The notes under the pieces are model-generated. The model had not been told where the DNA came from, did not search any database, and saw nothing but the letters and a program-made list of their open reading frames with translations. Position numbers and translations under genes: made by a program. A stretch of DNA of 7,216 nucleotides, from the IMG/VR virus record IMGVR_UViG_2548876935_000005. One strand, written 5' to 3'. Positions 6,450-6,959 of the stretch are shown in pieces (position 1 is the stretch's first letter; each line of letters begins with the position of its first letter). Source of the DNA: a virus. Lineage: Duplodnaviria; Heunggongvirae; Uroviricota; Caudoviricetes.

Positions 6450-6503
6450 TTATTGCAATTATCGATGGTATTATTTCAATTTGTGCAATAATTGCAATTA
6501 TTG
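6450..6503. promoter_or_regulatory. operator-like palindromes: 18-bp perfect palindrome CAATAATTGCAATTATTG (6486-6503) and a related ATTGCAAT core (6452-6459)
   Basis: I verified the 18-mer as its own reverse complement. It lies 20 bp upstream of ATG 6523, with a second copy of the core about 39 bp further upstream. Confidence 0.45.
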
Positions 6504-6522
6504 TCATTCAGAAGGGATCATC

Positions 6523-6690
6523 ATGAAAAATCACGGAGTAAAGCCAGTTTTACTTTCCCGGGGGCAGATCGAAGCCCTGCAACGTATCCAGGCCGAAAAG
6601 CGTCAGAAATCTGTGCTTGGTGTGGCACCGTCGATTCATGTTATTGCCCGGCAACTGATGGATAAGGCACTTAAAGAGGTGAGGCTGTGA
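6523..6690 (+). CDS. small putative DNA-binding regulator (55 aa), possibly ribbon-helix-helix-like
   Basis: RBS AGAAGGGA precedes ATG 6523. The protein is small and basic, with a predicted strand-helix-helix layout (PVLLS / RGQIEALQRIQAEK / IHVIARQLMDKALKE). Immediately preceded by the palindromic operator and coupled to the next gene. Confidence 0.5.
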   Translation: MKNHGVKPVLLSRGQIEALQRIQAEKRQKSVLGVAPSIHVIARQLMDKALKEVRL

Positions 6691-6959
6691 AATTAAATAT
6701 CAGAGTGGATAAACGCCAGCTATGGCAGAAAAAAGAGAACAGCGAGGCATTCAGGGCTTTGCTGGTGGAAAATCTTCGGCACCGGTTCAGTGGAGAGTTG
6801 CCTGATGCACTGGGGAAGAAACTGGAATCCCTGACGGTGGAAATTGGCGATTATGGCTTTGTTGATGTTGAAAGCACGACTGCCAACACAGAAATCGTAA
6901 AGCAGGTCGTCAATGATGTAATGAAAACCACGCTTAGCCAGCCATCCTGGCGCAACTGA
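6687..6959 (+). CDS. hypothetical acidic protein (90 aa)
   Basis: GTG start overlaps the upstream stop (GTGA at 6687-6690), with RBS AGAGGTGAGG at 6675-6684. Followed by a hairpin at 6966-6986. No family recognised. Confidence 0.5.
   Translation: MKLNIRVDKRQLWQKKENSEAFRALLVENLRHRFSGELPDALGKKLESLTVEIGDYGFVDVESTTANTEIVKQVVNDVMKTTLSQPSWRN

Follow-up and report, generated by a model that had tools for sequence, protein, structure and literature searches.

An internal operon of a PICI-type phage satellite of Escherichia coli, led by a two-box promoter and a gene for a predicted ribbon-helix-helix protein

The DNA described here is a stretch of 7,216 nucleotides (IMG/VR record IMGVR_UViG_2548876935_000005; hereafter the window), which is part of a phage satellite of Escherichia coli of the phage-inducible chromosomal island (PICI) type, the full copy of which carries int, alpA and a primase gene. 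Near the 3' end of the window, a promoter region precedes two small overlapping genes for proteins of 55 and 90 amino acids (aa) and the beginning of a third gene. A first-pass annotation, made from the sequence alone, had noticed a palindrome in front of the gene pair and interpreted it as the operator of an autoregulated two-gene module, such as a toxin-antitoxin-like pair. This annotation is partly supported: it was largely right in what it observed, and its operator and toxin-antitoxin readings were not supported. To our knowledge, the timing of expression of helper-hijacking genes in Gram-negative PICI-type satellites is understood only as far as AlpA. The features of the promoter and the gene pair are as follows.

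6444-6459, plus strand: box 1 (distal), TTTCATTTATTGCAAT, an imperfect dyad TTTCA-N5-TGCAA and candidate operator
6474-6489, plus strand: box 2 (proximal), TTTCAATTTGTGCAAT, an imperfect dyad 30 bp from box 1
6484-6492, plus strand: possible extended -10, TGcAATAAT, recognized by reading the sequence
6486-6503, no strand: exact 18-bp palindrome, CAATAATTGCAATTATTG, ending 19 nt before the ATG of the 55-aa open reading frame (ORF)
6512-6518, plus strand: Shine-Dalgarno sequence AAGGGAT of the 55-aa gene, aligning with GGAGG in relatives
6523-6690, plus strand: first operon gene, encoding the basic 55-aa protein with a predicted ribbon-helix-helix (RHH) fold; a hypothetical protein in the Prokaryotic Genome Annotation Pipeline (PGAP)
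6687-6959, plus strand: gene of the 90-aa protein, its GTG start overlapping the stop of the 55-aa ORF (GTGA), with a predicted beta-alpha-beta-beta-alpha fold closest to DinI

The ATG of the 55-aa ORF is at 6523, not 6524, and the overlap of its stop with the GTG start of the next ORF was described correctly in the first-pass annotation. Compared with the E. coli variant L025 (loci are cited by such handles where they have to be told apart), the 55-aa gene shows 13 synonymous and 9 nonsynonymous codon differences, indicating purifying selection, and the 90-aa gene shows 12 and 2, indicating strongly purifying selection. The two proteins also stay similar into other genera despite many synonymous changes. 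Based on this selection and this similarity across genera, both ORFs are real genes. In the E. coli variants APEC IMT5155, 258E and 0-4, the set of three genes (55-aa, 90-aa and a helix-turn-helix (HTH) gene) directly follows a gene for a PerC homolog, and the likeness to the window starts at about 6439. Two genes for a 380-aa lipoprotein-like and a 107-aa membrane protein, which precede the 55-aa gene in the window, are therefore considered an insertion, and the cassette is taken to start at about 6440.

Relatives of the 55-aa protein were collected from species-representative genomes, IMG/VR, E. coli genomes and metagenomes, which gave 90 loci in Escherichia, Serratia, Pantoea, Erwinia, Rouxiella, Rahnella, Pectobacterium, Lonsdalea and other genera. 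In all of the 90 loci, the RHH gene is the first gene behind a non-coding stretch with the same promoter, and no ORF is conserved across that stretch. The gene that comes after it belongs to at least seven unrelated clusters, listed here with the number of loci.

31 loci: the 90-aa family
19 loci: a 108-aa protein, then a 1136-aa tape-measure protein
17 loci: tape-measure or lytic tail proteins of 566-844 aa
5 loci: DUF2824 head-morphogenesis protein
5 loci: phrog_917 proteins, annotated as 'released from the phage upon host infection' (P22-type ejection)
3 loci: baseplate hub
2 loci: HEAGH peptidase-like protein

Since the RHH gene always comes first and the genes behind it fall into so many unrelated clusters, the 55-aa gene together with its promoter is a conserved leader, and the cargo is swappable and consists mostly of virion parts. 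The leader of this satellite operon is an uncharacterised family of predicted RHH proteins. Conservation of the pair as a unit, which the first-pass annotation called for, holds for the 90-aa gene, which is always found behind an RHH gene, but not for the RHH gene, which precedes all of these other families as well.

Virion DNA-delivery parts were located behind the RHH gene in L005 (6174-9922), L037 (7267-10764), L017 (6165-7256), L018 (6167-6625), L082, L070 and L097, and their kinds also include tail assembly chaperone with tape measure, lytic tail or tape-measure proteins with a transglycosylase, and a tail-fibre-like protein. We know of no description of satellites with their own tape-measure or ejection proteins. 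Two ORFs that overlap the promoter region of the window, a 79-aa ORF on the plus strand (6287-6526, ending with ATGA on the 55-aa start) and a PGAP-annotated 66-aa ORF on the minus strand (6307-6507, across the promoter), are conserved in no relative and are probably spurious.

The promoters were aligned over the 125 or 110 bases before the start codon, and the 90 loci yielded 72 distinct promoters. Their consensus consists of TTTCA-N5-TGCAAT, 14 bp, a second TTTCA-N5-TGCAAT, TATAAT, one base, ACTGTAT... and then the ribosome-binding site, so that a perfect TATAAT is present in relatives immediately 3' of box 2. Distances to the start codon are fixed in most of these promoters, which come from many genera: -78/-79 or -83 to -85 for box 1 and -48/-49 or -53 to -55 for box 2; in some relatives box 2 is inverted (ATTGCR-N5-TGAAA). 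The boxes are the top columns of the alignment, with a mean information per column of 1.13 bits for box 1 and 1.29 bits for box 2, against 0.36 upstream and 0.59 in the spacer. Within the 24.9-kb locus L001 of E. coli USMARC-51688, which holds an intact copy of the satellite, exact boxes occur at this promoter only. Judged from these alignments, the conserved candidate control sites are two TTTCA-N5-TGCAAT boxes of 15-16 bp, 30 bp apart. Readings of the boxes or the palindrome as sites of Fur, CRP, ArgR or CytR-like proteins presumably do not apply, as spacing or half-sites do not match.

Many relatives have a LexA box in the stretch from the -10 to the ribosome-binding site. The strict form, CTGT-N8-ACAG, has 13 matches in 289 kb of sequence, and 6 of the 13 fall into the 36-bp stretch before the RHH start, which makes up 0.3% of that sequence. 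Counted by distinct promoters, the strict box is present in 14 of the 72 (at -24 to -32), CTG-N10-CAG in 17, and a 15-bp variant that is one base short in 21. The promoter of the window has no LexA box, and neither do the E. coli lineages, so that the operon in the window itself is not placed in the SOS regulon.

The 15-bp variant reads CTGTAT-N3-(A/T)ATCAG, which amounts to CTG-N9-CAG with the right arm one base short, and is located at about -24 from the RHH start with a varying centre; it is carried by L005, L012, L014, L017, L020, L022, L023, L035 and 13 IMG/VR loci. It overlaps the ribosome-binding site, and either LexA binding or this overlap may account for its retention. Further perfect LexA boxes were seen elsewhere in related satellites, in L002 at about 7108 (+1277 from the RHH start), in L023 at +5578 and in L011 at -2949, and one such box lies 5' of a gene pair for an AAA ATPase and an S8 peptidase, downstream of the operon in Serratia. 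In the Pantoea/Erwinia-type loci L005, L012, L014, L016, L022 and L023, the promoter is preceded by an added CGATC-repeat element, e.g., CGATCGAAACGATCAAAT, at about -105 to -85 from the RHH start and directly past a terminator; this CGATC-rich element is not in the window.

The 55-aa protein is basic, as reported before, with an isoelectric point (pI) of 11.0 and 11 lysines and arginines against 4 aspartates and glutamates. Its predicted structure consists of an N-terminal strand and two helices within about 45 residues, the arrangement of the RHH fold, and the model ends with helix 2, leaving no C-terminal extension. According to this model, it is a ribbon-helix-helix DNA-binding-type protein. 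The promoter offers repeated subsites that would suit RHH dimers, namely TTTCA-N5-TGCAA twice and a TGCAAT repeat at 9-bp spacing. No PADLOC match was obtained for the protein, tblastn with the 55-aa and 90-aa proteins against 50,697 phage records returned no match, and an RHH protein tied to PICIs was not found in the literature.

The first-pass annotation had called the 90-aa partner acidic. Its pI is 8.03, with 13 aspartates and glutamates and 14 lysines and arginines, and it is not acidic; the acidic protein is the product of the next gene. Its family is very small, with 8 matches in an exhaustive profile search of 1.84 billion representatives, and 5 of these are true relatives. The homologs are located directly 3' of an RHH gene in all 5 resolved contexts, usually with overlapping stop and start, and the cargo beyond them differs. 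In E. coli and Serratia this cargo is a terminase-small-like HTH protein of 173-175 aa; two metagenomic elements have a Phage_TAC_4 chaperone with a tape measure instead, and a further one has a DUF5681 protein. Because the 90-aa protein accompanies the regulator and no particular cargo, a role in modulating regulation or induction is more likely than one as an effector of morphogenesis. It is probably a translationally coupled accessory, either a partner or modulator of the regulator or a modulator of the SOS or helper-induction pathway, rather than one that acts on a particular cargo. Its model has the beta-alpha-beta-beta-alpha fold of the DinI type in about 80 residues.

The explanation that we favour, with roughly even confidence, is that positions 6440-6959 comprise the control cassette and the first two genes of an internal helper-exploitation operon, which is self-regulated and was ancestrally SOS-gated. 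Dimers, or dimers of dimers, of the 55-aa protein would bind the dyad boxes at 6444-6459 and 6474-6489, which, at a distance of three helical turns, would flank the -35 region on both sides and border directly on the -10. The product of the first gene would thereby control its own promoter, most probably by repressing it. The ancestral operon would have been SOS-gated via a LexA box in the same promoter, as suggested by the presence of such a box in many relatives. The E. coli lineages would then have lost the LexA box, and the lineage of the window would have gained a 9-bp tandem repeat with TGCAAT at that place, which gave rise to the palindrome.

Several observations weigh against parts of this explanation. 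The distant promoters L008-L011 and L033 have no box at up to one mismatch. A promoter scan by a two-hexamer rule found no sigma-70 site on the plus strand and no convincing -35 was recognized, and the boxes could be read by another factor or serve as promoter elements of an activator. For the 55-aa protein and 14 members of its family, no match to an RHH family was obtained in Pfam, NCBIfam or PHROG even at permissive thresholds; the RHH-type assignment of the first-pass annotation is thus upheld for the predicted fold and not for sequence. Neither PDB profile searches nor Foldseek identified a match for the protein. Sequence-profile searches of the PDB gave chance matches only, such as leucine-rich repeat kinases via a GELPDxLG motif. 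The predicted monomer cannot display a beta-ribbon, and its strand (K-P-V-L-L-S) is more hydrophobic than is usual for a ribbon that reads bases. Concerning the partner, the likeness to DinI rests on a model with a predicted local distance difference test score (pLDDT) of 75, built from 5 sequences. Alignment of the 90-aa family with E. coli DinI and a DinI alignment by hhalign gave probabilities of 0.4-1.3%, with a shallow DinI alignment (orthologues at least 74% identical); the equivalent helix-loop segment was aligned, not significantly. Six members of the 90-aa family had no match to Pfam DinI (PF06183) at E-values up to 10. The acidic C-terminal helix of DinI is also missing (pI 8.03 vs. 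4.74 for DinI), the helix NTEIVKQVVNDVMKTT being approximately neutral.

The main rival of this explanation is that a host factor, a helper-phage factor or another satellite regulator such as AlpA or PerC reads the boxes and the palindrome, and that the 55-aa protein has a different role, e.g., as a DNA-binding accessory for packaging or replication or as an adaptor to helper proteins. We consider this unlikely. The boxes are absent from the other promoters of the element; the 55-aa gene is the one trans-acting gene that always travels with them, and Serratia L002, which has no PerC, keeps them. A cargo-specific role of the 55-aa protein is unlikely because the cargo behind the regulator changes completely from locus to locus.

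Self-regulation through the palindrome itself, as the first-pass annotation proposed, was also weighed. The palindrome at 6486-6503 was observed correctly, and no other perfect even palindrome in the window has arms of at least 6; it does lie just upstream of the 55-aa ORF, at a distance of 19 nt rather than the 20 bp first given. Dinucleotide shuffling produced arms of at least 9 in 29 of 1000 cases for the whole window, in 10 of 5000 for the 278-bp intergenic region, and in 5 of 5000 for the AT-rich core (6440-6522, 28% GC). It is built from two tandem 9-bp units, TGCAATAAT and TGCAATTAT, which add a third TGCAAT half-site. A repeat finder described the same region as a family (D1) of three copies at 6441-6462, 6471-6492 and 6480-6501, spaced by 30 and 9; copy 1 covers box 1, and the palindrome is the overlap of copies 2 and 3. 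In the window, AATTGCAATTATTG fills the place where relatives have the TATAAT -10 and the LexA box.

In favour of this reading, the palindrome is perfect in symmetry and statistically unusual, overlaps the likely -10 and transcription start, and shares the TGCAAT half-site with the conserved boxes. The palindrome is, moreover, constant in all W-type E. coli copies while bases of the adjacent spacer vary. Only 6 of the 72 distinct promoters (18 of the 90 loci) have it, however, and they all belong to one E. coli lineage, that of the W-type elements. L024, L055 and L058, whose regulator differs by N3G alone from that of palindrome-bearing elements (L007, L042), have unrelated sequence at its position. 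The number of 9-bp units varies, with one in promoters of the L024 type, two in the window and three in the IMG/VR element L052, and in L032 (E. coli N921) a 39-bp deletion corresponding to window 6452-6490, between two copies of ATTGCAAT, has removed box 2 and half of the palindrome. In the same strain the 55-aa gene was left unannotated by PGAP. Because of its restriction to 6 promoters and its absence with a regulator differing by N3G, the palindrome, although real and non-random, is not a conserved operator as far as the compared promoters tell, and that it serves as the operator for autoregulation of a two-gene module is doubtful; at best it would be an auxiliary site. It is probably an extra, lineage-specific candidate site for the 55-aa protein over the -10 and the transcription start, not the core operator.

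It is improbable that the palindrome has no function of its own and merely arose when a 9-bp AT-rich unit slipped or was duplicated where the LexA box had been lost. Such an origin would be in keeping with the variable number of units and the deletion-prone, AT-rich region, and also with the promoter segment from box 2 to the ribosome-binding site, where conservation among E. coli lineages is lowest. On the other hand, arms of 9 were rare in the shuffles even of the AT-rich core, the duplicated unit is exactly the conserved half-site, and about 110 E. coli genomes, albeit closely related ones, carry the palindrome without any change.

A type II toxin-antitoxin-like pair, with the RHH protein as antitoxin and autorepressor and the 90-aa protein as toxin, shares with systems such as ParDE, RelBE and TacAT a small RHH gene, an overlapping gene for about 90 aa and a palindromic or repeated upstream site, but is very improbable, as the toxin and defence searches that had been proposed (Pfam, NCBIfam, PADLOC, PHROGs) gave no match for the 90-aa protein, its predicted fold resembles DinI and tautomerase-like proteins and not the RelE, ParE, CcdB, Doc or GNAT toxins, helix 2 is the end of the 55-aa protein, which leaves no toxin-neutralising tail, and the pair is embedded in a longer operon whose regulator is coupled elsewhere to tail, ejection and peptidase-like genes.

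Beyond the favoured explanation of the self-regulated operon, a broader proposal can be put forward tentatively. The promoter with boxes, -10 and LexA box, together with the RHH gene, might be a portable SOS- and self-gated launch pad of Enterobacterales PICI-type satellites, into which virion DNA-delivery and packaging parts matched to the helper are swapped (terminase-small-like protein, tail chaperone with tape measure, P22-type ejection proteins, baseplate hub), and the 90-aa protein might be a new SOS/RecA modulator or an antirepressor that aids the trigger or timing of helper induction. The cassette would provide a second, internal control point in these satellites, made up of a two-box promoter, an uncharacterised RHH first gene and often a LexA box, and conserved over many genera. 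The cargo behind it amounts to a catalogue of satellite-carried virion parts, such as tape measure, ejection proteins and baseplate hub, and this combination of a cross-genus control cassette with SOS boxes and a virion-part cargo is what makes the locus most interesting. The target for further work is also corrected: it is the boxes and not the palindrome alone, and the partner is seen as a regulator or modulator and not as a toxin.

Comparison with known systems places the cassette beside several of them. In passages of later papers (PMC6739421, PMC6092414) that cite Ubeda et al. (2007), operon I of the Staphylococcus aureus pathogenicity islands (SaPIs) is presented as a LexA-controlled packaging/interference operon. 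The operon described here resembles it as an internal satellite operon with helper-exploitation genes (terminase-small-like, morphogenesis) and, in many relatives, a LexA box, whereas its hosts are Gram-negative, its proteins are unrelated, an RHH gene leads it and the E. coli lineage of the window has no LexA box. Proteins of the DinI fold were reported in LexA-controlled prophage operons beside small antirepressors, as in Gifsy and 186 Tum (PMC3121763). The terminator, the promoter with a LexA box and the small genes including one for a predicted DinI-fold protein, all in a mobile element, are reminiscent of these operons; however, the 90-aa protein is not significantly DinI-like in sequence and not acidic, no antirepressor homolog was identified and the window lacks a LexA box, so the Gifsy/186 dinI operons serve as an analogy and do not include this operon as a member. 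The 55-aa protein has no sequence match to the RHH autoregulators Arc and Mnt of P22, CopG, omega, MetJ and the N-domain of TraM, and, as far as sequence and model allow a comparison, its inter-helix loop is longer and its strand is hydrophobic.

Behind the gene pair, the window contains the following features.

6966-6986, plus strand: hairpin after the gene pair, with an 8-bp stem and a 5-nt loop and without a U-tract; not a canonical terminator
7059-7162, plus strand: 5' end (about 34 codons) of the third operon gene, cut off in the window; 175 aa when intact
7163-7216, no strand: end of a copy of ISEc8 (IS66 family), which interrupts the third gene after about 34 codons

The hairpin had been noted in the first-pass annotation, and it does follow the pair. 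A 51-nt stretch containing it has a folding energy of -13.7 kcal/mol (z = -1.9), the terminator scan did not call the hairpin at 6966-6986, and Serratia has a different, stronger hairpin at the equivalent position. As the third gene is interrupted by ISEc8, this copy of the satellite has probably lost the function of that gene. Copies free of ISEc8 exist, for example in E. coli APEC IMT5155 and O104:H4 C227-11.

The intact 175-aa protein has an N-terminal HTH of the excisionase/MerR/terminase-small type and an acidic C-terminal part (pI 4.26), and it matches the terminase small subunit family phrog_57 at E = 4e-6. Its N-terminal HTH of the terminase-small/MerR type is a point of likeness to the Rpp-cos packaging redirection module of EcCICFT073-type PICIs (PMC6739421, PMC9026076), and the third gene sits where PICIs have their packaging genes (PMC11364771). 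It differs in length (175 aa vs. 139-154 aa for Rpp) and in having no solved relative and no lambda-like cosN upstream: a phmmer search of all PDB chain sequences gave two chance xylanase hits and nothing else at E-values up to 1, a lambda-like cosN was found neither in the window nor in the element at up to 2 mismatches, and no P2 cos was found in the element. Based on these searches, the assignment of the third gene as Rpp is unsupported, and it is not classed as such.

The satellite as a whole follows the plan of Gram-negative PICI-type elements, which comprises integrase, alpA and primase/replication genes in one orientation and a size of about 10-15 kb, without a full virion gene set. The gene order in L001 is integrase, AlpA (Phage_AlpA, E = 2e-19), AntA, Icd-like, DUF4222, D5-type primase, ProQ/FinO and PerC, then the 380-aa lipoprotein-like protein, the 107-aa membrane protein, the 55-aa and 90-aa proteins, the 175-aa HTH protein and one further ORF before the chromosome. 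With respect to integrase, AlpA, AntA and D5-type primase, the Serratia copy (L002) has the same plan. The satellite region was detected in 131 of 5426 complete E. coli genomes. An Rfam scan gave sub-threshold chance matches only.

The ProQ/FinO and PerC homologs (window 3753-4579; L001 9992-10280) are core genes of the satellite family, and frameshifts affect PerC in L001 and ProQ in L024. The genes for the 380-aa and 107-aa proteins, at window 4714-6244 between PerC and the cassette, are missing in L024-L026 and had no match among the defence models; they are an accessory insertion in a mid-element hotspot. In Gram-negative PICIs, an accessory region 3' of pri with packaging genes beyond it was described (PMC11364771). 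After the 175-aa gene, the 3' ends of the satellites hold variable defence-like cargo, as in L024 (8953-10445), L025 (8686-11404) and L002 (7249-10558), of which the kinds include DUF4747, a SIR2 family protein and the AAA ATPase with S8 peptidase. PICIs have a 3' hotspot, and the variable defence-like cargo at these 3' ends agrees with it.

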